From positions 192,001 through 256,000 of the IMG/VR virus record IMGVR_UViG_3300021431_000076: a stretch of 64,000 nt of DNA; one strand, given 5' to 3'. The DNA is from a virus. Lineage: Duplodnaviria > Caudoviricetes. The stretch's first letter is position 1; every line of letters begins with the position of its first letter. Below are positions 4,059-59,437 of the stretch, one piece after another. The notes beneath the pieces are model-generated. The model searched no databases. It saw only the letters and a program-made list of their open reading frames with translations, and was not told the origin of the DNA. Made by a program: the position numbers and the translations under genes.

Positions 4059-4105
4059 AGTCTAGACTAAATAAAAGACTATGAGAAAGGAGGAAATTGA
4101 TATTT

Positions 4106-13100: not shown

Positions 13101-16100
13101 AAGGGCGCAAAAAGAAAGGCAAAGCTTCAGAAGTAGCATCAAAAATAGATGAAATGACAAATTCTTCAAAAGCAGAGCAAAAATCTGCTGTTCAAATGGC
13201 TATTGGAAAAATAAAATCAACACTACAGACTGTTATTTCTGCAGTTGGAAAATGGTTCCCTGGTAAAGAAACAGCAACTGCTATAGATACTTTTTGTAGA
13301 AAGATTATAGGTAAAATAGCAACAGAACAAGGTGAACAGGCTATTGCTAAAGCTGTTGCAAAACAAGCAGCTTCTGCATCTGCTGGTGCAGCTACTATGG
13401 GAATTGGTACTGCTGTAGTTACTATTGGATTTGCTGCTACTGAATTTATTCATGGTTTTAATAATGCATCTGAATTGTTTAAAATAGCTGAAGCTGTTGT
13501 AACATTTGGAATGAGAACCTTAGCTGGTTTAGTTTGTGCAATTCATGCTGCACTCACTTCTATTCCTGTTGTTGGTATAGCAGTAGCTATATTTGTAGAT
13601 CCGGATAAATTATTAGAAGATGCTATAGATATAATTGGTCCTGCTGTTGGTATAACTAGACAAGATCTAGATAATTTGCGCAAAAGTGGACAAGATAAAA
13701 TTGATCAAGATGTAGCAGATGCTGCTGAACAAACAAATCTAAGCCCATCATATACAGATTCTATTAAAGCAGCTGCAGGTTCTGCAGTTGGTATGGTAGT
13801 ACAAGGAGCATCAAGTTTTGCTGGAATACTTGCTGATAAAGCTAAAGATGCTATGTCTAGTATTGGAGATGCTACAGGAAAAGCAATGAGTTTTGCTAAA
13901 GATACAGCAGCTGGTGTTGGTAACTGGATAAAAGAAAATGCATCTAAAGGTTATCAATTCTTATCAGATACTGCTTCTTCTGCATGGCAAACTGCTAAAA
14001 ACTATGGTTCAAAGGCATATGATACTGTTGCTAGTGTTGTAAGCGGTGCTAAAGATAAATTCTCTGGACTAGTAAGTTCTGCTAAAAGTTATGCTTCAAA
14101 TTTATTTGGTAAAGGTAAAAATGATCAAACCGATAATGGTTTATTTGGAACTGGAATACATTCTCAATTAGATCCTAAAATAGCAGGAATGCCATTCAAT
14201 AAAGCAGGAGATACAGAAAAACAAACTGTTAGAGATTCTGCTTGTGGTCCAATGGCTATGGCTAATGCTCTTGAGGGTTTGGGATATTCTATAAATGATA
14301 CAGATATACTCAAAAAGACTTTAAATGGTAAAGAAACTAATGGTGGTATGCCAGATTATGTATTATCTGAATATGCAAATAGACAAGGAGCCTCTACTAG
14401 AAATATTGGAACAAGTTATCAAGATCTAAAGGAATCTTTAATGAGTGGAAATCCATTAGTTTTAATGGGTCAAAATAATATAGGTGAGACAGATAAAGAT
14501 CCATTTGCTGAGAATCCTCACTATGTGACGGCTCAAGGTATAGATAAAGATGGATATGTAACAATCAAAGATCCAGAATCATATAATCCAATTAAGAAAT
14601 ATAAATTATCCGATATAGCTAAAACAACTACACTTGCTACTGAAGTAGGAAAAGGTAAATTTGGTAGATCTAGATATGGCAAAGGACCAACATTAGATGA
14701 GAATCCACCATTTGGTTCAATTGCTGCTGAATTGGCTAAGAGAACAGGTTCAAAACACCCCGAATTCTTCTGGGCTCAAATGATGCATGAAACTGGTGGA
14801 CCAGAAAACGAAAAGAAATGGAATGCTAAACATCCAGAATATGGTGATATTCATAACTATGGTGGATTTACATGGTATTCTGGTATGGGCGAAGAATATA
14901 AAGGACCTCCTCGTCCAAAGAGTGAAGGAGGATATTACGCTAAATTCAAATCAGATGCTGAATATGCTGATATGGCATTCAGAAAAGTCTATAAATCATA
15001 TGCAAATGAATTGGCTAAATGCAATACTGTAGAAGAATTTGCTGCAGTTCTTAAGAAACATGGATACTATGATGATACTGAAGCAAACTATGTAGCATGC
15101 CTTAATAGATGGCTAAATCAATATAAAGGAAAACTTGGCAATATTTCTGGTATGAGTATATCTGGAGATGCATCTAACACTTCTGCATCATCAAATGGAA
15201 CTTCTTCTACTGGAGGTAAATTTGGTGATAATAATGGTCAAAGTGTAGCTGGTTTCTTCAAAGCTATTTCTGATTCTTCAAAAATAATCAAGTCTAGTAT
15301 AGAAGCTGGAACTAAAAGAATATTTGGTAAAGGTAAAAGTAAATGGGGTAGAGAAAAATCAAATGGTACTGGAGAAGATATATATGCTTATCTAAAATCT
15401 AAAGGATTATCAAATCAAGCTATAGCTGGAATAATGGGCAACTGGTACGCAGAAAGTAAATGGAAATCATCTCTAGTTGAATGTAAAAAACCACCCTGGA
15501 GAGAAATCAGTTCTGATACAATGACTATAGACGGTAACACTGGATATGGTTTAGCTCAATGGACTTATATAACTAGACAGCAAAAATTACATGAATTTAT
15601 GAAATCAAAAGGTTTACAAGATTCAGATTACAAAGGTCAAATAGATTTTGTGTTCTCTGGACAAGATGGAGATATAAATCCTGTTATAAAATCTATGGAT
15701 AAAATGTCTCCAGAAGAAGCAGCAAGAGAATTTTTAGATAAATATGAACATAAAATATTAGATACAAAAAATACAGAGAGGTATCATCTATCAGAAAGAC
15801 AAAAGGCTGCAAAAGAAGTATTTGAAAAACAAGGAAAAGGCATGAGTGGTGTTAGCTCCTTAACAGGATCCTCCTCAGGATCATCTTCTAATGCTTCTGC
15901 AGATGTTCAAGATGAAAAAGAAACTGGAATTTTTGGAGCATTAGCTCAATTAGCAAAAAGAGTAGGATCTATTATCAATATTTTTGGTAGTGGAGATAAC
16001 GGTAGTTCTGGTGGAGGTAGTAATAGTATTGGTGGAGGAGCAAATGTAACAGAAATTGCCGATAAAATCATAAAAATGGCTAATGCCTATGCAAATTCCC

Positions 16101-19100
16101 CAATAACATATGCGATGACAAATCCTGTAGCTGTACCTCCAGCCAAAGGATCATGTGATTGTTCAGGAATGGCAATGTCTTGCTATAAAGCTGGTGGAAT
16201 AGATATAACTAGAACTGCAGATACTCAATATGAATTTTTCAAGAAACATAATGCAATATACAAAGGCGATATTAAAAGTTTACAACCTGCTGATCTGGTA
16301 TTTACAAGAGATTCTAGTGGTCAAATAGATCATGTATTTGTATACATTGGTAATGGAAAAGCTGTAAATATGGGTCAGAATCATAGAGAGCGTGGAAATT
16401 TAGCAGGATTAAATTCTGCAGGTGGAGATGCTGTCTATTATAATGGATGGGAAAAAATTCAAGCTGGTATAGATTATCATAAAGGTGGAGCAGAATTTGG
16501 TAGCTTAACTAAACTTTGTTCTGCATTAGGCCTTGGATCTTCATCTTCTGGAGGATATCATGGCGGAGATAAGAGATCAAAGACTACTAGAATTATTATA
16601 CACCATACAAGTGGTTCTAAGACAAGTGATCCAGATCCATCAGCAGCAGAAATCAATAAATGGCATACCGCTCCTCCAAGAAATTGGAATTGCATAGGAT
16701 ATCACTATGTAATTCGTAAAAATGGTTCAATAGAAAAAGGTCGAAATGAAGATGAAATAGGTGCTCACGCAGAAGGGGCTAATAATGATTCTATTGGTAT
16801 TCATGTTGGTGGGGAATTCATGTATTTCAAACCAACTGAAAAACAGATAGAATCTCTTATCAAATTGATACAACAACTTTGCAAGAAATATAATATTCCT
16901 ATAGATCGTAAACACATTTTGGGTCATAGAGAAGTAGGTCAAACTGATTGCCCTGGGGATAATCTATATAATCAATTAGATTCTATAGTTGCTAAAGCAG
17001 CTGGTAGCGGTAAAGGTAAATATAGATTTGGTAGAGGCAAACCAAACGTACCAAGTCTAATAGAAAAGAAATCAAATAGTTTTGGTAAAGGAAAATCAAA
17101 ATATGGTAGAGCTGGATATCTTAATTCAACTGGAAATGTTGGATTTGCCAATTATGACTATTTAAAATCAAACACAATCAATCCTCCTACTAATAATTCA
17201 GATTATAAATTCACAAATACAGATTTAACTCAAAAGCATTTAGATGCTGCTCTTAAAGGAGAGACATATCAAAGTCGTAAAGATCCTATTACTGGTAAAC
17301 TTCTAACAGCTAAAGATATGGAAACTGCTGCAAAAGCAGGTGTAACTCAAAATGTTAAAAAAGAAGATATCAAATCTCTAGAAGAATGGAATAAAGCTAA
17401 AGAAGAAGGAAGAGAAGTTCAAGTATCAGCTCCAGAAAATTCTGTAATTGATATAGCTGAACAAGGTAAACAAGAATCTCAAACTAATTTAATGGATCAA
17501 TTCTTTGGTGGTGTTGGAGAAAAATTAAATGCAATAGAACAAAAATTAGCTCCTATTAAATCTGGAATTCTAAGTAAACTTGGATCAGTTATAACAGAAA
17601 AATTTGGCAAATTCTCTAATCTAATTGGAGATCCTTTAGGAATGTTTAAAGGATTCTTTGGTTCAAAAGATAATTCATCTTCTTCAAGTGCTGATGGTTC
17701 ACATGGTGGTGGAGGAGGAACCTTTAATGGTGATGCTACAGCTATACCAGCTACAGGTTCTGCTGCTGCTGCTTTAAAGAAAGCCCTCAATTGTGAAATT
17801 ACTAGTCAATTTGGTCCACGTGATGGAGGAGTTCACCATGGTATAGATTATGGTATTGGTACAGGAACTCCTGTTCCTACTGTAACTGATGGTGTAATTG
17901 ATGATATAGGATCTCAAGGTGGAGCTGGATATGGTAACTATGTTGTCGTAAAAGATAAGAAAGGTATGTATCATATCTATGCACATTTAAGCAAAAACGA
18001 TCTAGCTAAAAAAGGCGATTCAGTTAAAGCTGGTCAAATTATAGCTAAATCTGGTCATAGTGGTCATTGTATTCCAGATGGTCCTAATGGATCACATTTA
18101 CACTATGGAATCTATAATAATCCTAATTGTGCTGCTGGTGACGGATGCATTAATCCAAATTCTTATAAAATAGATGGATTGAGCTCTTCAGGTCAAGGAA
18201 AATATGGTAGAGGTAAATTAATCAAGATAAATCCTGTCAAAACTAAAGGTTCTGATAGAGGTGGAGTCGATACAAAGAAATATGTTCCTAAGAGTGGTAG
18301 AGGCAAATTCAAATCTACTGGATTAGAAGATCTAGATATTACTAGAACTGCTACATATCCAGATTTCCCTAAAGAAGCTAAAAGTCCAGATAACAATTTT
18401 GGTATATCTGATGAGATGATCAAACAATCTAAATTTGGTCAAGGTAAATATGGTAGAGGATTTGATCTAAATAGTGTATTAAACGTACTAGGAACAATAG
18501 CACAATTTGCAAATCTTAATAGGAATCCATTTATTGTGGGTGGTGGATTTGCTGGAAACAATGCTCAACAGAAACCACAGAATAATATAAAACAAAATCA
18601 AAGCAAAAAGAAAGAAGTAGATAAGAAGCTCATAGCTCCTAATGGATTGCAATATACACAAAATGATATTGATTATATACTCAAGAACTCTGATAAATTT
18701 GGTGGAGCTAAAACTATAGATGATGCTATAAAGATTCTAGAAAAAGACAAAAAATATACAGAAAAACAAGAAGACACTAAGAAACAGATTGCTCCTAATG
18801 GATTGCAATACACTCAAAATGATATTGATTATATACTCAAAAATCCTAACTTATTTAATGGGGCTAAAACAGAAGAAGATGCTATTAAGATTCTATCTAA
18901 AGATAAGAAATATACCGAGAAACCAAAAGATACTAAGAAAGAAGAAAAGAAAACTGCGACTCAAGAACAAAAAGAAACAGCTCTTAAAGAATATAAAAAA
19001 CGAATAGAAACATTCTCCAATGTGCCAGTAGCTCAGCAGAGATTGATGTTGCAAATGGGTCTTGGTCCAAAAGTTCCTCAAATTCTATTAGAAGAAGAGG

Positions 19101-20707
19101 AAAAAGAAAAACAACAAACCAAAGAAGAAAAGAAAGAAAATAATGCAATAGCTCAAGAAGTAAAGAAAGCAAAAGAAGAATCTAAAGATAAAGATGCTAA
19201 ATCTGCTCCTAATGGATTGCAATATACACAAAATGATATTGATTATATACTCAAGAATTCTGATAAATTTGGTGGAGCTAAAACAGAAGAAGATGCTATT
19301 AAGATTCTATCTAAAGATAAGAAATATACAGAAAAACAAGAAGACACTAAGAAGGAAGAAAAGAAAACTGCGACTCAAGAACAAAAAGAAGCGGCTCTTA
19401 AAGAATACCAAAGGCAAGTAGAAACATTCAAGAATGTTCCAATAGCTCAACAAAGACTAATGGCACAAATGGGTATAATTCCTCAAGTACCAGATATACT
19501 AAAAGAAGAAACAGAGCAAAATAAAGAAAATAAAGATGTATTAGAAAAGCAAAAAGAGAAAGCTAAAACAATCACAAAAGAAAAGAAAGACTTAGGACCT
19601 TTTGGAGGTTTTGCTAATTCAATAGATAAACTAGAAGAAGTATTTGGTAGAATCTTTGGTAAAAAGAAGAAATCAAATAAAAAAGATGAAAAGAAAACTG
19701 GATCTGAATCAATAGATAAAGCTCAGAAAGAAGCAAAAGAAGCTAAGAAAGCAGAAGCTTCCATAGATAATAAAATCAATGAGAAAGATGCTCAAGCTAA
19801 GAAAAATAAATATAAAGAATACTTTGATAAGATCAATGATGATACTCCAATAGAAGATGTAAAAGAAATGATCAAAGATATTCCAAAAGATGGTATTTCT
19901 AAAGATAATATTATTGATTGGGATAATGATGATAAGAGTGTAATCAGAGCTAAAGCAAAAGCTCAATTAAAAGCTTATAATATCAAATTAGAAGAAGATG
20001 CTAAGAAGAAAGCCAATGAGAATAAAACTAAAAATGAAGAAATTAAGAAAGATCAAAATTCTATTACTAAAGCTCAAGATGATTCTAAATTTAATTTAGG
20101 ACAAGAAGGTTCTCATGGTGAAGGTCCTAATGGAAAGAAATATACAAACAATGATATAGCATACATACTCAAGAATTCTGATAAATTTGGTGGAGCCAAA
20201 ACAGTAGAAGATGCTATCAAGATACTAGAAAAAGATAAAAAATATACTGAAAAATCAGAAGAGGCTAAAAAAGATGATAAACCATCTCCAGATTCTACCG
20301 ACACTGGTAAAACGGAGAAGGGTGAAACTAAAGAAAACGAAAAATCTAAGGATGGGGTTACTACTTCCACACAAAAGTCTTCTCAAGAGGCTTCTCAGCC
20401 TGTTTCTACTCAAGATAAGCTTGATATATTAATTGCAGCACAAAATAAGACTAATGAACTATTATCTGCTATACTCAATATGGCAACTAAAGCAGTAGAT
20501 GCTAAGCAAACAGATATTAAAGCAGCTGAAAAGAATACAAAAGCAAAAGATAAGAAGAAACTTGATGAAACTGCTGCTATGACTAAATTGAATTATTTCT
20601 ACAATAATTCTATGAAGAATAGTGGTGTAGATACAAGCTTCTTTAATCCTGATTCAGGAGATTTCATAGATATATCTAAACGTATGCAAAATATAGCTTC
20701 AATGTAA
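4106..20707 (+). CDS. giant tape-measure-like / tail-associated multi-domain peptidoglycan hydrolase (~5530 aa)
   Basis: Helical N-terminus with glycine-rich hydrophobic repeats and FAxGG motifs. Domains: C39-like peptidase (SACGPMAMANAL...HYV, ~14150-14640); glucosaminidase-like (AQMMHETGG...LKKHGYY, ~14700-15130); phage tail lysozyme (AIAGIMGNWYAES...GYGLAQWT, ~15360-15840); NlpC/P60 (DCSG...HVFVYIG, ~16040-16520); Zn amidase_2 (IIIHHT...GYHY...GAHA...HREV...CPG, ~16575-16990); M23 (HHGIDY...HLHY, ~17790-18170). Start is either TTG 4097 or ATG 4106. Confidence 0.85.
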   Translation: MASNSIMDYLKNVGESVKFAAIESVTEKTPNLRKVFSENNKKYIQEVYKDVNQHRQELNMIDRIRNATVFKQISVGWDNLKDSIKTGKFKDDSRSTGFDEMEMMFAMMGDDFLGGDSDLIESEMNGEETGSTNEHRVRGIPEITKGDALVATASATATRNAASSISKAIVRSAELTDMTARKSTNLQLRALQQQANILSGGFQQLSSSLHTINQFNEQVVLTHAQNSRMFYEQATQLAQERNAILKEMLEMQRETFGATMRSNLSSDANDLSKMSKIFDKEKGFDLRAYMNLMQKRMKETPIGMVMMSIKMLPMMIGEVVQNPLHYIAKMGIDSIIDNSLKKAIYNIDQSISGMISTGLTKLANYGKDKATKNTLLGQIAGFFGLRDENTRLSAVDTSKYNKEAMQWNGIAQKALVEVIPGHLRRIEAALTGEAERVFDLQSGKWSTMKNVANVEKDIDRKVFKETFSKEKNQLLNMMNFNSREDKRGWINALDNFFKGVKNRGMIDYNHIREKSSEYGDNENIVKAIAYLIHSGGLDSSQIFNLTNKINEGNAKKAAMIRNLNPSNQSLVTEAVNNSYNAKWAAGTGAQYKTITNEDGSTRTYQKADKNGRWTSLPINDLSKLTDTRGYTLYDYQYNIMNLLMDIRSGGGFGSGGGSGRNKRSKQKTIPSTFVPVQTGNPYEYTDEELDDLKTSPNRQHAANLVQKAQAKSESKRLLLHPDKSGLDEEVKLPFSIEDIKNANEEQLAAIISHMNFAGQTSKEYRANKKVDSSGGIFGNLKSAASGLGIDSLDSFMEDMQEATSIADKFNVVGEALRSMTSAPQKILTSVLTEADRFMYEFMFGNPAGTEKDENGQPIEGFFGKVTNEFGKTMNNLNNKFNEWFKDTFKKGAGGIAGFFKGVLEDYFDIDIDKKVENAERHVKKYANKVKKGALSAGADLFGIAKEAVLGTAQDMGIYEPDEEENQSSPPPTTAYRGIRKYDSKYGLGIVGPGEKIISPGRGKVLDNTTGYKGYLLHEGDSVIPSYLNPSNAGRGRVTSQSLESQARNENALKDRYMSGGSIPFVGTFAQGGTVRKKVGGWIDDLIDSENKEDNTPDLDKQKKSRGFFHNFRNWLTGYNEPEFNEDQIKMQEFIKNIVNSATKAAIEANGGMFEDEESKGKSITQAGFEMAGKLRKSKVDLNTNEFQEALKEVLAMSENIKDPDFRDTLQFILNTAGYKGEFDTVDESKKVRRSRRNNLFVGVNQFMDTAFGIDSQKAIKEADKTIRKNLPELAKGGTLGALLSTVLPLGGPLMGALVGAGASVLTNSKSFQSYMFGSEITDKDGNVIDRKNDGIVSRKTVKAIQRYMPDAKKYGITGAIAGLVLPFGPLGGLMLGAGASFLKNNSRFQEFMFGEEGGLINKDRKERIKKALPNIGVATLGTLFLGPFGIVGNAMLGAGLGILSTTESFKRIMLGAKDKNGVRRGGLADIIRRQITDPFKKTMDDAKTRLAAWFKDDLFNPLAKTIKPLARVMTGEVKDIARKAAEFVFGKKGENQKSIFGRLGLKSVDRMLGLVRNAGGLGAFGLQQIGNVIGKGAHWAEKNIGQKMEKRAFRKGYIEGDTTAQERLDRAEELGVNADDANQYALGGLDKTIANISAGPDSKTKLQDLSTAISMMQDHLNGTPQNINRQIVAEKDNIESMSEKAYQDYMRKNPNAKNPHDMHRTIEKFINKMNKIGASDDFDLELSKGEIAKELADSDLPEEVKDQLMAVWEESGSNIDKLRKSKAQLNINGGKDAYNYMERMAANALGYEGELSDEQKERIKKILQNPNALEAITQEQRLNKEKEANDDSVNSQLKKQLDNPADQLITNNQELQINELQVMNTTLSYISNLLAATSQEDKDKIIQEFQKTMDKYNGVAKSEKLQKTIEESKAYANSIAAQKDKDDFNTDIGAGANQKIYNDRKFNRENAYQNDRFVEIINREREEKAYLGENLDKYIESIEPEVWKLVINESTWDKFKRNAKELAKDLSDDITHISQQGYAALLTADLYAQDKVNKAANYVMDNKDEIANAPLVILNGVLDAIAKLGDSGIEQLAQLNAKLHGDFYETKENAITRTLGEFKSFDSLSDDEKAELTGKDKPEPNSIKAMNNTKTTSMVEDNGRVVFGDPNENKKQEENKNQEQPKKDEEPKEEPNALHRIQEGIKEKAKETKDEVKETLKDEVEKIKETTKELVVEPIKDAATKVKDELESLANSIKTTAQVFSKFGNPIENVEKDTHDQIDNKTDKNPPIATYGLPFFDTFAAGGIAAAAASSGGGSLMGSIFKGAVGGALDHFTGGDSKDKKEDSNNTKETQSKSTPQSPDISSNDIKSVGGLISSLVSKSSGGAPDINSKDNISYTSDADGNPIAITKGPDGTPMKVRNKDNAMIEEKHKKEFSFKERSANALEAIAASIGAKAKDAAGTLGKGAAKAGGGLFGGLLDSIGGILNMLCLGLPVGTMLIGALKSLPGKIFKFFGGKLFDKFKDKLPDSISKKIGKMLGRDEDDEDDEDEDDEDDSKSKDKKSKKKKDKKKSKKDKDDEESNSIKSEAKKKKKKNGKKKKKGKKADSVENNENENQQEESNSIKSEAKKKKKKKGKKSKNKKADSADSVENNENENQQEESNSIKSEAKKKKKKKGKKSKNKKADSADSVENNENENQQEESNSIKSEAKKKKKKKGKKKKQQSTKSNNKDSKEESNSIKSEAKKKKKKKKDKKKKSKGSNLVNGGLAALSTAASLIATNDNSLFGSILGFDDEDDEKEDDAKDSDENSEDDDEKEAEKPNHYANIFNNLSKIIDNSDKEEVDIDPYMAIMQSINSILLGDEEEENDEDDDDEEEEEEEEVKSKKKKKKNKKKSKKETNAIKEEAKKKKKKGKKKADSADSVENDENQQEESNSIKSEAKKKKKKKKKGKKSKNKKKKKSKSRSSIANIAESGGAAAAIIDILGPDDEEEEEENDGSNSIKDMIEEADFSTGTEKAKGRKKKGKASEVASKIDEMTNSSKAEQKSAVQMAIGKIKSTLQTVISAVGKWFPGKETATAIDTFCRKIIGKIATEQGEQAIAKAVAKQAASASAGAATMGIGTAVVTIGFAATEFIHGFNNASELFKIAEAVVTFGMRTLAGLVCAIHAALTSIPVVGIAVAIFVDPDKLLEDAIDIIGPAVGITRQDLDNLRKSGQDKIDQDVADAAEQTNLSPSYTDSIKAAAGSAVGMVVQGASSFAGILADKAKDAMSSIGDATGKAMSFAKDTAAGVGNWIKENASKGYQFLSDTASSAWQTAKNYGSKAYDTVASVVSGAKDKFSGLVSSAKSYASNLFGKGKNDQTDNGLFGTGIHSQLDPKIAGMPFNKAGDTEKQTVRDSACGPMAMANALEGLGYSINDTDILKKTLNGKETNGGMPDYVLSEYANRQGASTRNIGTSYQDLKESLMSGNPLVLMGQNNIGETDKDPFAENPHYVTAQGIDKDGYVTIKDPESYNPIKKYKLSDIAKTTTLATEVGKGKFGRSRYGKGPTLDENPPFGSIAAELAKRTGSKHPEFFWAQMMHETGGPENEKKWNAKHPEYGDIHNYGGFTWYSGMGEEYKGPPRPKSEGGYYAKFKSDAEYADMAFRKVYKSYANELAKCNTVEEFAAVLKKHGYYDDTEANYVACLNRWLNQYKGKLGNISGMSISGDASNTSASSNGTSSTGGKFGDNNGQSVAGFFKAISDSSKIIKSSIEAGTKRIFGKGKSKWGREKSNGTGEDIYAYLKSKGLSNQAIAGIMGNWYAESKWKSSLVECKKPPWREISSDTMTIDGNTGYGLAQWTYITRQQKLHEFMKSKGLQDSDYKGQIDFVFSGQDGDINPVIKSMDKMSPEEAAREFLDKYEHKILDTKNTERYHLSERQKAAKEVFEKQGKGMSGVSSLTGSSSGSSSNASADVQDEKETGIFGALAQLAKRVGSIINIFGSGDNGSSGGGSNSIGGGANVTEIADKIIKMANAYANSPITYAMTNPVAVPPAKGSCDCSGMAMSCYKAGGIDITRTADTQYEFFKKHNAIYKGDIKSLQPADLVFTRDSSGQIDHVFVYIGNGKAVNMGQNHRERGNLAGLNSAGGDAVYYNGWEKIQAGIDYHKGGAEFGSLTKLCSALGLGSSSSGGYHGGDKRSKTTRIIIHHTSGSKTSDPDPSAAEINKWHTAPPRNWNCIGYHYVIRKNGSIEKGRNEDEIGAHAEGANNDSIGIHVGGEFMYFKPTEKQIESLIKLIQQLCKKYNIPIDRKHILGHREVGQTDCPGDNLYNQLDSIVAKAAGSGKGKYRFGRGKPNVPSLIEKKSNSFGKGKSKYGRAGYLNSTGNVGFANYDYLKSNTINPPTNNSDYKFTNTDLTQKHLDAALKGETYQSRKDPITGKLLTAKDMETAAKAGVTQNVKKEDIKSLEEWNKAKEEGREVQVSAPENSVIDIAEQGKQESQTNLMDQFFGGVGEKLNAIEQKLAPIKSGILSKLGSVITEKFGKFSNLIGDPLGMFKGFFGSKDNSSSSSADGSHGGGGGTFNGDATAIPATGSAAAALKKALNCEITSQFGPRDGGVHHGIDYGIGTGTPVPTVTDGVIDDIGSQGGAGYGNYVVVKDKKGMYHIYAHLSKNDLAKKGDSVKAGQIIAKSGHSGHCIPDGPNGSHLHYGIYNNPNCAAGDGCINPNSYKIDGLSSSGQGKYGRGKLIKINPVKTKGSDRGGVDTKKYVPKSGRGKFKSTGLEDLDITRTATYPDFPKEAKSPDNNFGISDEMIKQSKFGQGKYGRGFDLNSVLNVLGTIAQFANLNRNPFIVGGGFAGNNAQQKPQNNIKQNQSKKKEVDKKLIAPNGLQYTQNDIDYILKNSDKFGGAKTIDDAIKILEKDKKYTEKQEDTKKQIAPNGLQYTQNDIDYILKNPNLFNGAKTEEDAIKILSKDKKYTEKPKDTKKEEKKTATQEQKETALKEYKKRIETFSNVPVAQQRLMLQMGLGPKVPQILLEEEEKEKQQTKEEKKENNAIAQEVKKAKEESKDKDAKSAPNGLQYTQNDIDYILKNSDKFGGAKTEEDAIKILSKDKKYTEKQEDTKKEEKKTATQEQKEAALKEYQRQVETFKNVPIAQQRLMAQMGIIPQVPDILKEETEQNKENKDVLEKQKEKAKTITKEKKDLGPFGGFANSIDKLEEVFGRIFGKKKKSNKKDEKKTGSESIDKAQKEAKEAKKAEASIDNKINEKDAQAKKNKYKEYFDKINDDTPIEDVKEMIKDIPKDGISKDNIIDWDNDDKSVIRAKAKAQLKAYNIKLEEDAKKKANENKTKNEEIKKDQNSITKAQDDSKFNLGQEGSHGEGPNGKKYTNNDIAYILKNSDKFGGAKTVEDAIKILEKDKKYTEKSEEAKKDDKPSPDSTDTGKTEKGETKENEKSKDGVTTSTQKSSQEASQPVSTQDKLDILIAAQNKTNELLSAILNMATKAVDAKQTDIKAAEKNTKAKDKKKLDETAAMTKLNYFYNNSMKNSGVDTSFFNPDSGDFIDISKRMQNIASM
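11786..12900 (+). repeat. intragenic repeats encoding EESNSIKSEAKKKKKK
   Basis: Unit gaagaatctaattctataaaatcaga at about 11786, 11903, 12026, 12149, 12251 and 12838; 123-bp period across the middle copies. Confidence 0.9.
18634..20250 (+). repeat. four ~45-aa repeats (APNGLQYTQNDIDYILKN...AIKILxKDKKYTEK)
   Basis: Near-identical DNA copies at about 18634, 18790 and 19204, plus a diverged copy at about 20123. Confidence 0.9.
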
Positions 20708-20797: not shown

Positions 20798-22933
20798 ATG
20801 ATTAGTTATAAAAGACCTACTCCTTATATTATAAAAGGTAGACCTGTAAAGGTATATAGTGAAGCATCAGCAGTAACAGGAAAAGTTATAAATGCATTAC
20901 CTCCAGAAACTACTGTATATGCTGTAGGAGAAGATAATGGTTATATTCAATTATATGAAGATGGTGGATTTATACTTAAAAACAATAATGTTATTTTAGA
21001 TAGGCAAACTATAACTCAAAATGCTATAACAAAGAGAATTCAGGAAGCTAGAAAAAGAAAAATAAGGTCTGCATCTCTTGCTATGCCAGCATCTCCACTT
21101 CAAGGACAAACACTCCAAATTAAAAAAGGAATACAAACTGATGCATATGGTAACCAAATACCATCAGATGTCCAAGGAGGAAGATTTCTAGCATATGATT
21201 CAACAGCATCTGATGGCGGTATAATAGTAAAAGATGCAACTACTGGTTATAAATATAAATTAAGTTCGAATAATATAGATGTAATTTATACAAGTGCTGG
21301 TCAACCAGTAGATCCAGAAAGTCAAGATTATGCACTAAGTCAAGCTGGAGTAGATAAGATATCTGCTGATGTTTATATTAAAAATGCACAATCAGCAGCT
21401 GAATCTAAAGAAGAAGCTACTGCTAAAGCTGTAGAAACGGCTCAAACTCAATCCAGTGCAACCCAATCAAGCGATAATAAATCTAAAAAGAAATCAACTT
21501 TAGGAAGTATACTTGATTCATTAAGAGAAAGTATATCTAGTGCAACATTATTAAGTCTTGTTGGCTATGATCATGATCAAGATAAATCTCAATTCCAAGT
21601 AAATAATACTAGATCTGTATTTGGATTTCCATATCAATTTGAACCTTGGGTTGATAATAGATTAGATGGTAGTATGGATTGGGAACCATTTGGTAGAAAA
21701 TTTTCACAAAAAATAGTAACCAGAGCACCAATATTAATTATGCAAGCAGGTGATCCTAAATTCTTAGCAGGATTTTCTGATCAAGATAGAAAAGGTACAA
21801 TAGAAGGATTGCTCAAAGGCAAAGGAACTACTGCAGATACTATTGCTAATCAAGCTGGTAAATATTATGCATTCTCTGATAGTTCAGTAGAATATTATAG
21901 AGCTGTAAATGATATGTGTAAATCCGTAGCTGCTATGATGGGTGTTGGCGATAGAAAAATAACTGTAAATGGTCATGGTCCTTATCCAACATCTAAATTT
22001 GATTGGAGTGACGCAGCATCTGGTGATGGTGGCTCTCATAACTTTTTTGGGTATTATAGACAAGCAGTGGCATTTTATGTAAATGCAGAACCTACCATGC
22101 AAGATGCTTTTACTAATGGATCTAGACCATCTCAGTTAGCTGGTAAAGTAAATCAATTATCTGATCAAGCTGCAGAACTTCAATTTATATTAGGTGGTGC
22201 TGAAGGTTATGATCCAACTGGATTAGCTGGAGCATTACATAGAGAAAGTAAAGAAGTAGTACAAGGTGCTGGAGCTAAAGATGGATCTGGTAGTACTGGT
22301 ATATTAGGAACTCTTATAGATAGAATAGATACACTTATGTCTGGTGGTAGATTAATCTTTCCAGAGATATGGTCTGATTCACAATATACAAAGAACTATA
22401 ATGTTACTATCAAATTAGACTCTCCAGATTGTGATCCTTTGTCTATTTATCTAAATATATTTGTTCCTCTTATTCATATTATAGCATTTTGTATGCCTAG
22501 ATGGTCTGCACCAAATGCATATGTATCTCCATTCATAGTAAGAGCATATCTAAGGTCTATGTTCCATGTAGATATGGGAATAATTACATCATGTGATATT
22601 ACTAGAGGCACACAACAAGGATGGACTCAAGATGGATTACCGACAGAGGTAACTGTAAATCTTACTATTAAAGATTTATACAATGTATTATCTATGATAT
22701 CTGGTGAACATAGCAATGATGTTATTTCTAATCCAGCACAATTAGATTATCTTGGTAATCTTTGTGGTATTAACGTAGCAGTTCCAGATTTTTCTAGAAC
22801 TCTTACTCTTTGGGCAGCATGTAGAAATCCAACTACAGCGATATCTGAAGCTGTATTAAGACTACAATCTAGAGCAGCTCGTACAGTTAATAGTGCTTGG
22901 CAAAATCTATTCAATTCATATTGGAGAATGTAA
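20798..22933 (+). CDS. baseplate/tail-tube-initiator-like structural protein with N-terminal SH3b-like domain
   Basis: N-terminal VKVYSEAS...VINALPPETTVYAVGEDNGYIQL is SH3b-like. C-terminal FPEIWSDS...GIITSCDITRG...GLPTEVTVNLTIKDL has a tube/hub-fold pattern. GGAGG RBS favours the ATG at 20798. Confidence 0.55.
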   Translation: MISYKRPTPYIIKGRPVKVYSEASAVTGKVINALPPETTVYAVGEDNGYIQLYEDGGFILKNNNVILDRQTITQNAITKRIQEARKRKIRSASLAMPASPLQGQTLQIKKGIQTDAYGNQIPSDVQGGRFLAYDSTASDGGIIVKDATTGYKYKLSSNNIDVIYTSAGQPVDPESQDYALSQAGVDKISADVYIKNAQSAAESKEEATAKAVETAQTQSSATQSSDNKSKKKSTLGSILDSLRESISSATLLSLVGYDHDQDKSQFQVNNTRSVFGFPYQFEPWVDNRLDGSMDWEPFGRKFSQKIVTRAPILIMQAGDPKFLAGFSDQDRKGTIEGLLKGKGTTADTIANQAGKYYAFSDSSVEYYRAVNDMCKSVAAMMGVGDRKITVNGHGPYPTSKFDWSDAASGDGGSHNFFGYYRQAVAFYVNAEPTMQDAFTNGSRPSQLAGKVNQLSDQAAELQFILGGAEGYDPTGLAGALHRESKEVVQGAGAKDGSGSTGILGTLIDRIDTLMSGGRLIFPEIWSDSQYTKNYNVTIKLDSPDCDPLSIYLNIFVPLIHIIAFCMPRWSAPNAYVSPFIVRAYLRSMFHVDMGIITSCDITRGTQQGWTQDGLPTEVTVNLTIKDLYNVLSMISGEHSNDVISNPAQLDYLGNLCGINVAVPDFSRTLTLWAACRNPTTAISEAVLRLQSRAARTVNSAWQNLFNSYWRM

Positions 22934-41968: not shown

Positions 41969-42078
41969 GACAATCGTTAGATTGTCATAAATGAAAGGAT
42001 GCTCTCTATGAGCATCCTTTTTTTATTTTTAGAAACAGACCTTTGTATTTAAGAAAAAGACTTAAGGAGACGATTATT

Positions 42079-42906
42079 ATGGCATCAGAAGTATTATTTT
42101 CCAAACCCGTTTATGACTACAATAAACCTTTATTAGAAAAGATTAAGACATATGAACTTAAAACAAAAGTAAACAAAATAACAATTCCTCAAGAAAATAT
42201 ATTTGCATACTATAATGATGAAGAGCATCCTATACTAATAACATATCTTCCTGATTATAATAACTATAGAATTGGTTATGAGATGGAAATAGATGATGAT
42301 ACAGAAACTATTACATTATCTTACATAGATAAGAAGTTTAATTATGTATTCTGCCCTACAGAAAAAGACTTTGCTAAACTTAACTTATTCTTTAACAAAG
42401 TATCTTCTGGAATTAAAGAACTTCATGATCTTAGAAATAAAAGAGTATATTCTACTAGTGCTATAAGAGCTTTCTATGTAGATAAGTCTATGTGGATCAA
42501 CAATAATGGTTTCTATGATATATATGTAGATATATTCATTTCTGGTACTGATAAAACATTTGGATTATATAGAAAATTCTTAGGGATGAACAATAGACAA
42601 CTGTTCTATCTTGTGGATGAGTTAGATGACGTTGATAAAATGCTTATGAAAAATCATCTCTTAAGAATATATCCTAGTGATAAACTTGGAATGAATGTAT
42701 ATAATAAGGAAATTGTCTTGGATGCGTCGGCAGTATTCTTATATGAGATAGGTCAATTCAGAAAAGACAATACAGCTTATAATAAAATTAAAGAAGAATA
42801 TTTAGATGATGTGCACAATTCAGTAGATGCTGAACAGCAACAATCATTTGATTTTCTCGTTGCTGAAGAAGCCAATAAAGATGCGGATTCAGACATTCCA
42901 TTTTAA
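42079..42906 (+). CDS. protein with SSB-like acidic C-terminal tail (...DADSDIPF)
   Basis: AAGGAG RBS favours ATG 42079; late-type AACA-gacctt-TG at 42034-42045; C-terminus mimics bacterial SSB DDDIPF. Confidence 0.55.
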   Translation: MASEVLFSKPVYDYNKPLLEKIKTYELKTKVNKITIPQENIFAYYNDEEHPILITYLPDYNNYRIGYEMEIDDDTETITLSYIDKKFNYVFCPTEKDFAKLNLFFNKVSSGIKELHDLRNKRVYSTSAIRAFYVDKSMWINNNGFYDIYVDIFISGTDKTFGLYRKFLGMNNRQLFYLVDELDDVDKMLMKNHLLRIYPSDKLGMNVYNKEIVLDASAVFLYEIGQFRKDNTAYNKIKEEYLDDVHNSVDAEQQQSFDFLVAEEANKDADSDIPF

Positions 42907-42918
42907 GGAGGATTCTCT

Positions 42919-43218
42919 ATGACTATTGAAGAAGCACTAAATATTTTATGTAAAAAATCGTATCTTGTAGATAAATCAAATAATGATAATATAGTTCCGC
43001 TAGATCAATTCTATGGAGTAGATTGTACAGCTGATGATACCTATATTATATTTGATTGTGATATAAAGGATGGTGTACCAGATATATATAGACTTCTTCC
43101 ACCAATAGAAACAGAAACTATGGGTTTAAATGTAGAAAAAGTTACAGATTCATGTGAATATGAATCAGTATATTGGCGTTACACCACATTAGAAAAAGAG
43201 ACTAATTCTCAAAAGTAA
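42919..43218 (+). CDS. hypothetical protein
   Basis: AAGGAGG RBS. Confidence 0.65.
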   Translation: MTIEEALNILCKKSYLVDKSNNDNIVPLDQFYGVDCTADDTYIIFDCDIKDGVPDIYRLLPPIETETMGLNVEKVTDSCEYESVYWRYTTLEKETNSQK

Positions 43219-43233
43219 ACTAAAAAATAGATA

Positions 43234-43248
43234 TATACTATATAAGTG
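43234..43248 (+). promoter_or_regulatory. early-type promoter
   Basis: tatactat-ataagt-G. Confidence 0.7.
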
Positions 43249-43445
43249 TAGAAACAGGTATTAGTTAGTCAAACCTCCGCATGATAGGTTAAATTATGCA
43301 CAAATATACAAAAATACATGAGTATTGAAAATACACCGATTGGCTAATACCTGCGACTACATTGAGCTTGTTGCTCTGGTTGAGGAATACTTATACAGAA
43401 ATAACTATAGGACGAGTCCCTCTAGGCTCGTCCTATAAGTTATTC
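43248..43445 (+). ncRNA. putative pseudoknot-containing ncRNA or structured leader (~200 nt)
   Basis: 16-bp closing stem with 3 G-U pairs (43255-43270 / 43338-43353) enclosing an H-type pseudoknot; long 3' stem 43400-43444. Confidence 0.6.
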
Positions 43446-43477
43446 GAATTCACAAAATTTTTTAGAAAGGTGATAAT

Positions 43478-44008
43478 ATGAAACTTACGTTTATTGATGT
43501 AACTGGTAAGCCTGAACTTGTAGAATGGGTTCAGAATAAGGAAACTGGTGGTAAAGCTTCCATATTCAGATTCTATGCTTTAGAAATGTTAGGCACTCCA
43601 TTAAAAGCATTGATGCCATTGGCTGATACTATGATGTATCTCAATCCAACAATAGATGGAGATGAAAACTCTAGGATATTTGATGAGAAGTATGCAGATC
43701 AATTATCCAATTTCCCAGCAACCAAGTTTGATCTAGCAGTTCTACTGGAACAACTTCAGTTAAAGGATGAAGTATATGTAGTATGTAACTATACTCATCC
43801 TACAGTAGGTCCTATTGTAGATAGTCTCTCTAAGTATATCCAACAGAAATATACTTTTCAAGGTATATATCTGGTAAATGATCTTGAAGATATTGATGAA
43901 TTTGCCACATCTGAATTTGATACAGATGAAGGATATGCTGCCTTTGTCAAAGATGTTGAGTGGATGACTGGTCAAAGAGATGAAATGGCAACAGCTCTTA
44001 AGAAGTGA
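43478..44008 (+). CDS. hypothetical protein, DUF488-like pattern
   Basis: LKALMP...FDEKYADQL...LAVLLEQL...EVYVVC; AAGGTGA RBS. Confidence 0.5.
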   Translation: MKLTFIDVTGKPELVEWVQNKETGGKASIFRFYALEMLGTPLKALMPLADTMMYLNPTIDGDENSRIFDEKYADQLSNFPATKFDLAVLLEQLQLKDEVYVVCNYTHPTVGPIVDSLSKYIQQKYTFQGIYLVNDLEDIDEFATSEFDTDEGYAAFVKDVEWMTGQRDEMATALKK

Positions 44009-44013
44009 TTTAG

Positions 44014-44790
44014 ATGTTATATGAGAGAACACTGTATTCAGCTCCATATCAATATCTAATCAATAGGAATATACAAGAGTATGATATATCCAAAGCAAAT
44101 ATATCTATATTACTAGATATAGGATATATTACTAAAGAAGAATACGATTATCTGTATAGACTTCCCAAACAACAAAGAGAAGTCAAAGTTGGTTGGAAGA
44201 TGAGAAGTGATCAGAATATGATAAAAGCATTAAATTATGGTTTCATAGAAGCAAGGAAGACGTTCTTTGAGTTAAATGAGATCAATGATATGAATGTATT
44301 GTATATTGATAAAGATTCTATCACATTGATAGATACTAATATCAAAACTACAAAAGTATCTGATCATGTAGAATTTATCCCAAAAAGTAGATATACTAGT
44401 TTATACCGATTGGGTCAAGTTCATTTTCTATATCTTAATGACAACACATACAGATTTAAGTATGTAAATCAAGAGATGCTAGAATCTTACCATTCTGGAT
44501 TCTTTATAGACTTTCTATTGTTCATAGCAGAAGAAGCTCAAACTAATTCTGCTAATGAATGTATTGGTTATGTCAGAAGCTTCTATAACCAATATGTATC
44601 TAGAACTTTGGATATAAGATACTATAGGGAATTCAATCAGATGTGTAAGTATAAGATTCTCAACAGTGGTTATTATTTAGCTATTGATAATCCTAGTGCT
44701 ATAGAGATAGTGGATATATCCTATAATGCTAGGATTATTCAGGATATATACAAATCATTAGCTAATGAGTATTTCAAAGGTGTTAAATAG
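44014..44790 (+). CDS. small family-B DNA polymerase palm-like protein
   Basis: EYDISKANISIL (motif A-like) and LYIDKDSI (motif C-like); no exonuclease domain. Confidence 0.5.
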   Translation: MLYERTLYSAPYQYLINRNIQEYDISKANISILLDIGYITKEEYDYLYRLPKQQREVKVGWKMRSDQNMIKALNYGFIEARKTFFELNEINDMNVLYIDKDSITLIDTNIKTTKVSDHVEFIPKSRYTSLYRLGQVHFLYLNDNTYRFKYVNQEMLESYHSGFFIDFLLFIAEEAQTNSANECIGYVRSFYNQYVSRTLDIRYYREFNQMCKYKILNSGYYLAIDNPSAIEIVDISYNARIIQDIYKSLANEYFKGVK

Positions 44791-44802: not shown

Positions 44803-44892
44803 ATGTTTACTTGGTTTCTTAGTTGTTTCTGTGCAGCAATTGTTACTTGTGTAGTATTGCACATTCGTAATGATTTAGCGTTCAATTTCTAA
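44803..44892 (+). CDS. 29-aa hydrophobic peptide (missing from the ORF track)
   Basis: AGGAGG RBS; MFTWFLSCFCAAIVTCVVLHIRNDLAFNF. Confidence 0.6.
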   Translation: MFTWFLSCFCAAIVTCVVLHIRNDLAFNF

Positions 44893-44905
44893 GGAGGAGT
44901 TCAAA

Positions 44906-45058
44906 ATGTTTGGTTCGATTTTAGGTTTCTTTGCAAAAACTATTGTTCAGGCAGTTGTTACTGCTGCTGTTACTATTGCCGGTATGCTTGTGGTTGCTCA
45001 ACAGATGGTAAACAGAATTCAGGATAATTACTACACTGATTTTGAGCCGGTTTATTAA
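44906..45058 (+). CDS. 50-aa membrane peptide (missing from the ORF track)
   Basis: AGGAGG RBS; MFGSILGFFAKTIVQAVVTAAVTIAGMLVVAQQMVNRIQDNYYTDFEPVY. Confidence 0.7.
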   Translation: MFGSILGFFAKTIVQAVVTAAVTIAGMLVVAQQMVNRIQDNYYTDFEPVY

Positions 45059-45486: not shown

Positions 45487-45555
45487 AGAAAGTTCCTCAC
45501 AAAAGGTGCCCTTCGGGGCACTCTGGACTTTTTGTTTAAAAAAGAGGTTTTAAAT

Positions 45556-46356
45556 ATGAAAGCAGAACAAATGTATAGATGTCTCAATGCTCAAATCAAA
45601 ACACAGACTAGCTTTATAGCAATGGTCGGTTCTCACAATTATAATCTTGCTGATGCCAATTCAGATTATGATTTTAAGTTATTTATCTATCCTACATTTA
45701 TGGATTTATATAATGGAGCTAAAAAGAATGGATTTGATGTTAAGGTAAAAGAATGTGATCTTAAGACCACAGATATAAGAAAGCTCAAAGATTGTTTAGT
45801 AAAATCTAGTTTTAATTTTGCTGAAACTTTCTTCTCTGATGATATCTATATTCCTACCAATGAGGATGAAAATTTAGATAAAGCTAATAGAGAAATGGTT
45901 AATTTCTTTATTCGTAATAGAGAATCTATGGCTGCACTGAATATAAGATACCTTATCAAAACAAGTAAAGGTATGATTCAATCTAGAACTAATGCATTTA
46001 CTAACAATGGTAAGTATAAATCAGCAGCTGAAGCATATAAAACTGGAATTATGCTTGGAAGATATCTTACAAATCTTATGAAGCAAGAAGAAGATCCTTT
46101 CTTAAATGCTATAAAGTTTAGCAAGTCTGATGCTATGAGAGAACCATATTTTCAGATGAGACAGAAAGCTATTACTGATAGAAAGATACTTAGTTATATA
46201 GATTTGGCTAATAAAGATCTTGATAAGATAATAGAAGAAGGAAAATTTGAGGATAGAGAAAAAGATCATGTGATGACATATGCAATGGAAAAAGTTCTCC
46301 ATAAATCTTTGGCTAAACGTATTCAAGTGGAATTGAATAATAAGTATACCAAATAA
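45556..46356 (+). CDS. Pol-beta superfamily nucleotidyltransferase (RlaP-like)
   Basis: GSHNYNLADANSDYDFK matches the GS...DxD motif; GAGGT RBS favours ATG 45556. Confidence 0.75.
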   Translation: MKAEQMYRCLNAQIKTQTSFIAMVGSHNYNLADANSDYDFKLFIYPTFMDLYNGAKKNGFDVKVKECDLKTTDIRKLKDCLVKSSFNFAETFFSDDIYIPTNEDENLDKANREMVNFFIRNRESMAALNIRYLIKTSKGMIQSRTNAFTNNGKYKSAAEAYKTGIMLGRYLTNLMKQEEDPFLNAIKFSKSDAMREPYFQMRQKAITDRKILSYIDLANKDLDKIIEEGKFEDREKDHVMTYAMEKVLHKSLAKRIQVELNNKYTK

Positions 46357-59352: not shown

Positions 59353-59367
59353 AGAATTATTTAAATA

Positions 59368-59382
59368 TATACTATTAAAGTG
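59368..59382 (+). promoter_or_regulatory. early-type promoter
   Basis: tatactat-taaagt-G followed by a 5' hairpin gtaggtg/cacctac. Confidence 0.7.
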
Positions 59383-59437
59383 TAGGTGTCTTATGGCACC
59401 TACATATATTATTGTTTTATTAGAAAGGAAGAACAAG

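Follow-up and report, generated by a model that had tools for sequence, protein, structure and literature searches.

A conserved, unclassified structured RNA leader that opens an early operon of an uncultured jumbo phage

Introduction

What occupies the 259-nt gap between a 99-aa open reading frame (ORF; 42919-43218) and the 176-aa ORF that opens the next operon (43478-44008) in the genome of a jumbo phage, and what might it do for the genes behind it? The gap contains an early-type promoter and a folded leader. Phage messages are known to carry structured leaders; about RNA-level control in the uncultured jumbo phages of gut and rumen that carry their own RNA polymerases, almost nothing is known.

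The DNA analysed here, called the window, is a stretch of 64,000 nucleotides from an IMG/VR virus record of 332,775 bp (31% G+C), of which it spans bases 192001-256000. The source virus is an uncultured jumbo phage of ~333 kb. A blastn comparison with GenBank phages gave no match, and no tRNA or tmRNA was found. Far upstream of the locus, window positions 4097-20707 form one ORF of 5536 aa with Lys/Glu/Asp-rich 123-nt tandem repeats inside it, at 11.7-12.9 kb. Immediately upstream of the 99-aa ORF, a 287-aa ORF (42043-42906) without a match in Pfam or PHROG searches ends in an acidic SSB-type tail (...DADSDIPF); because of this DSDIPF tail, the neighbourhood is of the replication type.

The reading preferred below, to which we give a probability of roughly 0.55, is that the gap encodes a ~230-nt cis-acting structured 5' leader which would govern the stability or processing of an mRNA that continues into the 176-aa gene and the mini-PolB gene behind it.

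Results

The leader fold and its promoter

The leader folds far beyond chance. For bases 43248-43445 the minimum free energy (MFE; RNAfold) is -68.4 kcal/mol; dinucleotide shuffles give -37.1 +/- 3.8 kcal/mol, which puts z at -8.2, and 0 of 200 shuffles folded as well. The whole is a folded and evolutionarily conserved RNA of ~230 nt at the start of an early operon, and the following features were assigned to it and its promoter.

43215-43247, plus strand: early-type phage promoter; GTAAAC at 43215-43220, N12, ATATACTAT at 43233-43241, N6, then the inferred +1 at G43248
43248-43360, plus strand: P1 domain; a 4-bp GUAG/CUAC helix and a 16-bp stem closing a variable 67-nt interior
43272-43299, plus strand: proposed H-type pseudoknot; 43272-43276 with 43286-43290 and 43279-43285 with 43293-43299, drawable in the window and its nearest relative L052 only
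43322-43334, plus strand: small hairpin gtatt-gaa-aatac in the P1 loop, from the MFE fold; kept in the window, L052, L006 and L132
43364-43376, plus strand: P2 hairpin GAGC-UUGUU-GCUC, 4 bp, from the MFE fold; the helix is replaced in kind among relatives
43381-43389, plus strand: Shine-Dalgarno-like box UGAGGAAUA, single-stranded and conserved, with no start codon behind it
43400-43444, plus strand: P3 hairpin; 19 bp, one bulged A on the 3' side, 6-nt loop
43445-43477, plus strand: A/U-rich unstructured spacer of ~33 nt, with AAAAUUUUUU at 43454-43463 and the Shine-Dalgarno sequence AAGGUG at 43467-43472

The promoter motif, GTAAAC-N12-ATATACTAT-N6-G, is present in ~35 copies in the genome, which stand in front of genes, mostly 25-35 nt before the ribosome site, and read GTAAA(C/A)-N12-ATATA(C/T)TAT-N6-G. 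The copy at this locus is invariant or nearly so among all relatives. Bases 43229-43248 read ATAGATATATACTAT-ATAAGT-G and match the early promoter defined by experiment in the Bacillus jumbo phage AR9, an element with the AT-rich consensus AAATATATATTAT-(6N)-G+1 (PMC5312081). An early-type promoter had been proposed here in an earlier note made from the sequence alone, and the motif bears this out. Because the motif fits the spacing of the AR9 early promoter, the +1 was assigned to G43248, where transcription probably starts by analogy with that phage and where the earlier note had also put it. The motif is that of an AR9-type (virion RNA polymerase) early promoter, and a virion polymerase would presumably recognize it. 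Between P3 and the ATG, a search for a second promoter gave one sigma-70-like match, which overlaps the ribosome site, and no conserved late-type motif. Across the genome, at least seven of the transcripts predicted from early promoters would have a hairpin within their first few bases (for example window 59367-59400 and 43233-43260), and most other early-promoter transcripts have a stereotyped 25-35-nt leader ending in AGGAGGAATA.

The P1 stem pairs caggtattagttagtc (43255-43270) with gattggctaatacctg (43338-43353) in 16 bp that include three G-U pairs, and is extended in the MFE fold by GUAG (43248-43251) pairing with CUAC (43357-43360). The earlier note had read the 16-bp stem, the gtatt/aatac hairpin and the 3' stem at 43400-43444 from the letters; the first can be read directly in the sequence and is present in the MFE fold, the second was found at 43322-43334, and the third is the 19-bp P3. 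The small gtatt-gaa-aatac hairpin is absent from the L135, L139 and L141 lineages. The window, L052 and L006 have the same UGAGGAAUA box between P2 and P3, and L132 has a nearly identical one. The box fits the AGGAGGAATA ribosome-site context of the phage's short leaders (family D16), which suggests a Shine-Dalgarno-like role.

Behind P3, the AAAAUUUUUU element and the Shine-Dalgarno sequence of the spacer are kept in all relatives. The Shine-Dalgarno window is ~50-60% unpaired in every one of the eight homologues folded, indicating that no conserved fold hides it. A leader peptide was considered and rejected: the only ATG frames have 3 and 10 codons, lack a good ribosome site and are not conserved.

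An intrinsic terminator was likewise rejected. A terminator scan of 43219-43477 called no terminator-like site, and no U-tract lies directly 3' of P3, as the earlier note had also remarked; a U6 run begins only 13 nt further on. This bears on a different reading of the locus, in which the product is a stand-alone 5'-UTR-derived sRNA of ~200 nt (43248 to ~43445) that ends, through termination or processing, at the foot of P3 and acts in trans on phage or host targets, with read-through feeding the genes. Both ends of 43248-43445 lie in strong helices, and the related leaders of L072 and L088 have hairpins followed by U-runs. There is also precedent among phiKZ-like jumbo phages: in 201phi2-1, 8 of 11 detected sRNAs come from premature termination in 5' UTRs, and one 5'-UTR sRNA is conserved by position in phiKZ, EL and PA3 (PMC11512511). 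Such RNAs (201phi2-1 sRNA005, phiKZ sRNAgp182) were seen in transcriptomes, arising by premature termination before a tail gene (PMC11512511). Like them, the present leader folds, is conserved and lies in the 5' UTR of a gene that is itself conserved, in jumbo phages with their own multisubunit RNA polymerases, but it differs in lacking a terminator and preceding a different gene, and it is known from sequence alone. P3 has no adjacent U-tract, and the possible single-stranded seeds are not conserved in L006, L132 and L135. For the same reason, a role of the CCUCC box at 43274-43278 as a conserved anti-Shine-Dalgarno or seed was rejected. An sRNA acting in trans is a candidate but an unlikely one.

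Compensatory changes in three helices

Homologues of the 258-aa mini-PolB protein were found in more than 120 loci, on jumbo-phage contigs of 200-350 kb. The near clade, drawn from metagenomes, comprises 10 leaders with ~7 distinct sequences (window, L052, L006, L132, L134, L135/L136, L139/L140 and L141), 150-234 nt long. All follow the same plan of promoter, P1, P2, P3, ~15 nt, AAAAUUUUUU, Shine-Dalgarno sequence and ATG, with P2 missing in L141. The leader of L052, the nearest relative, is nearly identical to that of the window.

The pair table of P1 was taken over the window, L052, L006 and L132. Three pairs are doubly changed (C-G to A-U, A-U to G-C and G-C to A-U), one has moved stepwise from A-U via G-U to G-C, and four further pairs are changed on one side, between G-U and Watson-Crick; the core has no disruptions. 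Equivalent P1 stems of other sequence stand at the same place in L134, L135, L139 and L141. The interior of P1 is replaced between the window and L006 and has shrunk to about 30-40 nt in L132 and L135, the loop closed by P1 spanning 30-70 nt. Because this interior varies freely in sequence and length, the duplexes appear to be what is needed, not a binding pocket. P2 retains its helix while its sequence differs: GAGC/GCUC in the window is found at the same place as ACGAC/GUCGU in L006 and L132, GCGUCC/GGAUGC in L135 and GCGUC/GACGC in L139.

In P3, 97.2% of the cells are paired and three pairs show double changes (six sequences), whereas shifting the register by 1-3 columns, as a control, leaves only 32-42% paired. 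The hairpin persists in L134 and L141, where most of its sequence differs, and the bulge is conserved in all clade members. Judged by these alignments, P1, P2 and P3 are maintained by compensatory changes.

The pairing is also strand-specific. Mismatches in the helices are G-U on the plus strand, the sole A-C lying at the frayed end of P1 in L132. The P3 covariance model (R1) scores 75.6 bits on the plus strand and 31.4 bits on the minus strand, and in seven of the eight leaders the plus strand folds to a lower MFE than its reverse complement. Since the G-U pairs and the covariance model favour the plus strand, selection acts on the plus-strand RNA; the suggestion of selection at the RNA level, first made from the three G-U pairs, gains the compensatory changes in P1 as further support. 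Read as DNA, P3 is a near-perfect 45-bp palindrome in a neighbourhood of replication genes, and the helices might conceivably be DNA-level palindromes (an operator, an origin or a recombination site) rather than RNA. This is highly improbable, given the G-U nature of the mismatches on the plus strand, the 44 bits by which the plus strand exceeds the minus strand, and arms that are free to covary, unlike the fixed half-sites expected of a site bound by a protein. The element also lies exactly between promoter and ribosome-binding site.

P3 is further constrained in its sequence. Over its stem and loop the window and L006 do not differ at all, although at four-fold sites their two adjacent genes show an identity of only 73% and 88%. 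By this comparison P3 is constrained beyond the need of a plain duplex, which hints at a sequence-specific binder.

No known RNA family accounts for these helices. With Rfam 15 at the gathering threshold, there were no matches in the whole window and none in 11 related loci, and permissive scans of the window and of relatives returned chance-level rows only; over 43150-43520 the top row was U12, with 16.1 bits where the threshold is 53. A search of distant relatives and other jumbo genomes with the P3 model gave no match beyond the near clade. On the comparative evidence, the leader is a real, conserved and unclassified structured RNA. With three covarying helices and no Rfam family, it is a clean candidate for listing as a new RNA motif.

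The proposed pseudoknot

The earlier note had placed an H-type pseudoknot within P1, pairing aacct with aggtt and gcatgat with attatgc, and had likened the RNA to type III antitoxins and preQ1 riboswitches. Both pairings can be drawn as proposed. When the P1 interior was dinucleotide-shuffled 2000 times, a crossing pair of 5 and 7 bp appeared only 33 times (1.65%) and is therefore not trivially expected. In L052 the second helix has grown to 8 bp through a single C-to-U change. The pseudoknot has no counterpart in L006 or L132, and in L134, L135, L139 and L141 the P1 interior is of different sequence and the MFE folds show none. Thus the covariation that is evident in P1, P2 and P3 does not extend to the pseudoknot, which lacks comparative support since no homologue other than L052 has it. 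Its third loop would be 2 nt across a 5-bp helix, a geometry that is sterically tight for H-type pseudoknots.

This weighs against both functions that a compact pseudoknot might suggest, a ligand-sensing riboswitch or a ToxI-like antitoxin, to which very little credence is given. The resemblance to ToxI and preQ1 RNAs is one of a compact pseudoknot on paper. Pfam and PHROG searches of the neighbours show no ToxN-like or other toxin gene, and there is no array of ~36-nt repeats, the only tandem repeat being a 19-nt A-rich tract with an 8-nt period, and the antitoxin likeness is not upheld. The comparison with preQ1 leaders fares no better: no Rfam match was obtained, relatives do not conserve the core of the pseudoknot, the Shine-Dalgarno sequence is sequestered by no alternative fold, and the neighbouring genes are not metabolic, those downstream being unrelated to queuosine. 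The pattern does not fit a ligand sensor, and the leader most likely controls message stability or processing.

The downstream genes and their other leaders

The operon behind the leader begins with two closely spaced genes, the second starting 5 nt after the end of the first.

43478-44008, plus strand: 176-aa protein, first gene of the operon; alpha/beta fold, model pLDDT 91
44014-44790, plus strand: 258-aa mini-PolB protein (palm/fingers), phrog_21037; model pLDDT 94

The 176-aa protein had been described as DUF488-like. It has no match in Pfam (E <= 0.01) or PHROG, and its structural matches are to generic alpha/beta folds (Z <= 6.1), so the assignment lacks support. For this protein, as for the 368-aa protein discussed below, Pfam, PHROGs, a PDB sequence search, a fold search and the Atlas gave no usable function.

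The polymerase-like character of the 258-aa protein was supported. Its Foldseek matches in the PDB are family-B DNA polymerases (E 2e-4 to 2e-3, probability ~1.0), and D24 and D101 are invariant and D99 near-invariant in motif A- and motif C-like boxes. The modelled protein thus has the predicted palm/fingers fold of family B with the acidic residues of motifs A and C, in the absence of a Pfam hit, the DNA_pol_B model included, and of the exonuclease and N-terminal domains. The phage's full PolB is split over two other large genes, with PF00136 (pol) at ~84 kb and PF03104 (exo) at ~95 kb; because the PolB hits lie in these genes, the 258-aa protein is a minimal accessory PolB-like protein and not the replicase.

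The 176-aa gene is paired with the mini-PolB gene in most relatives. The two proteins are conserved together in more than 100 jumbo-phage contigs. The RNA in front of the pair differs among lineages. L083, L084, L013 and L086 have an unrelated GC-rich leader of ~400 nt before the same genes (405 nt and z = -8.9 for L084:3022-3426), L016 has another unrelated design of ~258 nt (L016:3166-3423, z = -7.9), and L088 has a fourth. The structured leaders of the first four and of L016 gave no Rfam match. In L072, L080 and L056 a single hairpin directly follows the promoter, and in the L068, L060, L011 and L085 groups the pair stands behind a plain, unstructured leader of 20-25 nt. Because several lineages do with such a plain leader, the structured one would be dispensable in principle. 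Across the loci compared, the linkage between RNA and gene pair is lineage-specific and not obligatory: the near clade has the leader, and other lineages have unrelated or plain ones.

The recurrence of large leaders before one gene pair is notable, and it bears on whether the 176-aa and mini-PolB proteins work together with the RNA as their template, primer or scaffold, much as happens with the ncRNAs of retron or DRT systems. Large unrelated folded leaders precede the pair in at least three other lineages (L084, L016, L088), and the polymerase-like protein is accessory rather than replicative. At least four lineages, however, manage with 20-25 unstructured nucleotides. There is no reverse transcriptase, and there is no conserved single-stranded, template-like stretch, the P1 interior varying freely. 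A partnership in this leader is therefore very unlikely, and the lineage-specific linkage argues in particular against an essential RNA partner of the polymerase-like protein. The broader claim, that a working partnership between RNA and polymerase-like enzyme is what makes the pair acquire structured RNAs upstream again and again, in at least four unrelated designs, is also held at long odds; if true, the RNA-partner reading would make this a PolB-based counterpart of the retron or DRT RNA-protein systems. The retron likeness had been drawn from the end-pairing stem, which recalls a1/a2 on paper. P1 pairs the 5' end with an internal segment (43338-43360) and not with the 3' end of the structured region. 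No reverse transcriptase family match was found among the flanking proteins, and the retron reading is not supported.

Further 3', two small hydrophobic ORFs of 29 and 50 aa with strong ribosome sites (44804-45058) follow the mini-PolB gene, and behind them lie a 108-aa ORF and an RlaP-like nucleotidyltransferase gene (45532-46356; Pfam E 2.3e-5). A 740-nt gene-poor stretch 3' of 44790 was considered as a second ncRNA and rejected, as it contains small genes with good ribosome sites.

A second P3-like hairpin

The P3 model finds one further candidate in the genome, at 22394-22434 on the minus strand (L144:1501-1541), with an E value of about 0.05 on a rough calibration. This second hairpin is a perfect 14-bp stem, AAUAACUGAUAGGA-UGUAAG-UCCUAUCAGUUAUU, which shares 13+13 arm bases with P3. 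The inferred +1 of another early promoter lies one base before its start, and ~34 nt separate its end from the ATG of a 368-aa ORF; a sister genome (L148) keeps it with a loop change. In the distant L072 and L056, too, the operon is headed by a hairpin with a CUAUAGGA/UCCUAUAG or GAUAGGAG/CUCCUAUC core.

Hairpins that open with AUAGG and close with CCUAU are a common style in this genome, terminator-like ones included, and a loose genome scan for them found no clear enrichment over Markov shuffles. Because such stems are common, the relation between P3 and the second hairpin is suggestive only; the two may constitute a shared 5'-UTR operator or stabiliser.

Leader hairpins may serve as operators, as in the control exerted by T4 RegA and at the T4 gp43 translational operator, a short hairpin overlapping the Shine-Dalgarno sequence. 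By analogy, P3 and the second hairpin could be an operator bound by a phage protein that tunes translation or decay of a small regulon. The conserved bulge would suit such a role, as would a P3 stem and loop kept identical to those of L006 when neutral sites are 73-88% identical; the second hairpin, with its shared arms, the same distance to the ATG and its retention in the sister genome, and the related hairpins before the operon in L072 and L056 point the same way. Like the T4 examples, P3 is a leader hairpin of a polymerase-family gene, conserved in sequence and pairing. But it has 19 bp and ends 33 nt before the ATG, ~20 nt short of the Shine-Dalgarno sequence, and the mini-PolB is not a replicase. 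The match to the second hairpin is, moreover, borderline, in a genome where stems of this style abound. An operator is accordingly quite unlikely.

Discussion

The reading of the locus as a cis-acting leader draws together the features that are conserved: long duplexes, the first near the transcript start, and an open A/U-rich ribosome zone last, with no terminator between leader and gene and a Shine-Dalgarno sequence about half open in all homologues. The hairpins with which transcripts from several other early promoters of this genome would begin, the second P3-like hairpin among them, count in its favour as well. In the mechanism we propose, the P1 clamp would tie the first transcribed bases into a duplex and shield the 5' end from 5'-end-dependent RNases. 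The P3 duplex would be where the RNA is processed or recognised by a protein, host RNase III being one example; once cut upstream of or within P3, the coding message could begin with a hairpin, much like the simpler leader that opens with the second hairpin. The open A/U tract after P3 would allow ribosomes to load. What such a leader would set is the lifetime and yield of this early message, with no ligand being sensed.

Further observations bear on this model. Under the assigned +1, the first six bases are mostly paired in five of eight homologues and mostly free in three, with a 7-8-nt 5' overhang predicted for L134, L135 and L141. The duplexes are at the lower limit of the RNase III requirement of ~20 bp or more (P3 with 19 bp and one bulge, P1 with 16+4 bp). 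A search of the phage for an encoded RNase III or dsRBD protein found none, so processing would depend on the host.

Both parts of the mechanism have known counterparts. 5'-terminal stem-loops stabilise mRNAs in the E. coli ompA leader, the B. subtilis aprE leader and the early-RNA stabiliser of phage SP82. The present leader resembles these in having a long leader whose first helix starts at or close to the 5' end, an open ribosome site downstream, and a need for pairing rather than sequence. It differs in that P1 is a long-range helix around a 30-70-nt loop, two further conserved helices follow, and a 5' overhang is predicted in three of eight leaders. Hairpins processed by RNase III occur in phage early transcripts, namely in the T7 early region and in the B. 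subtilis phage SP82. P3 is like them a near-perfect duplex of ~two helical turns with a small bulge, placed before a coding region and free of a U-tract; unlike them, it sits with 19 bp at the lower edge of length, belongs to a phage without its own RNase III, and has been read only from genome sequences.

The leader offers a handle on the stabilisation or processing of early messages in these phages. The recurring unrelated leaders before the PolB-like pair and the second P3-like hairpin further suggest hypotheses for a small post-transcriptional regulon.

On a separate point of hairpin style, many terminator-like hairpins of the genome (for example G000 77618, 151290, 174282 and 177744) have an AUAGGG...CCCUAU stem with an A-run on one side and a U-run on the other, in a bidirectional style. 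This design is typical of the lineage and partly resembles the inner stem of P3.
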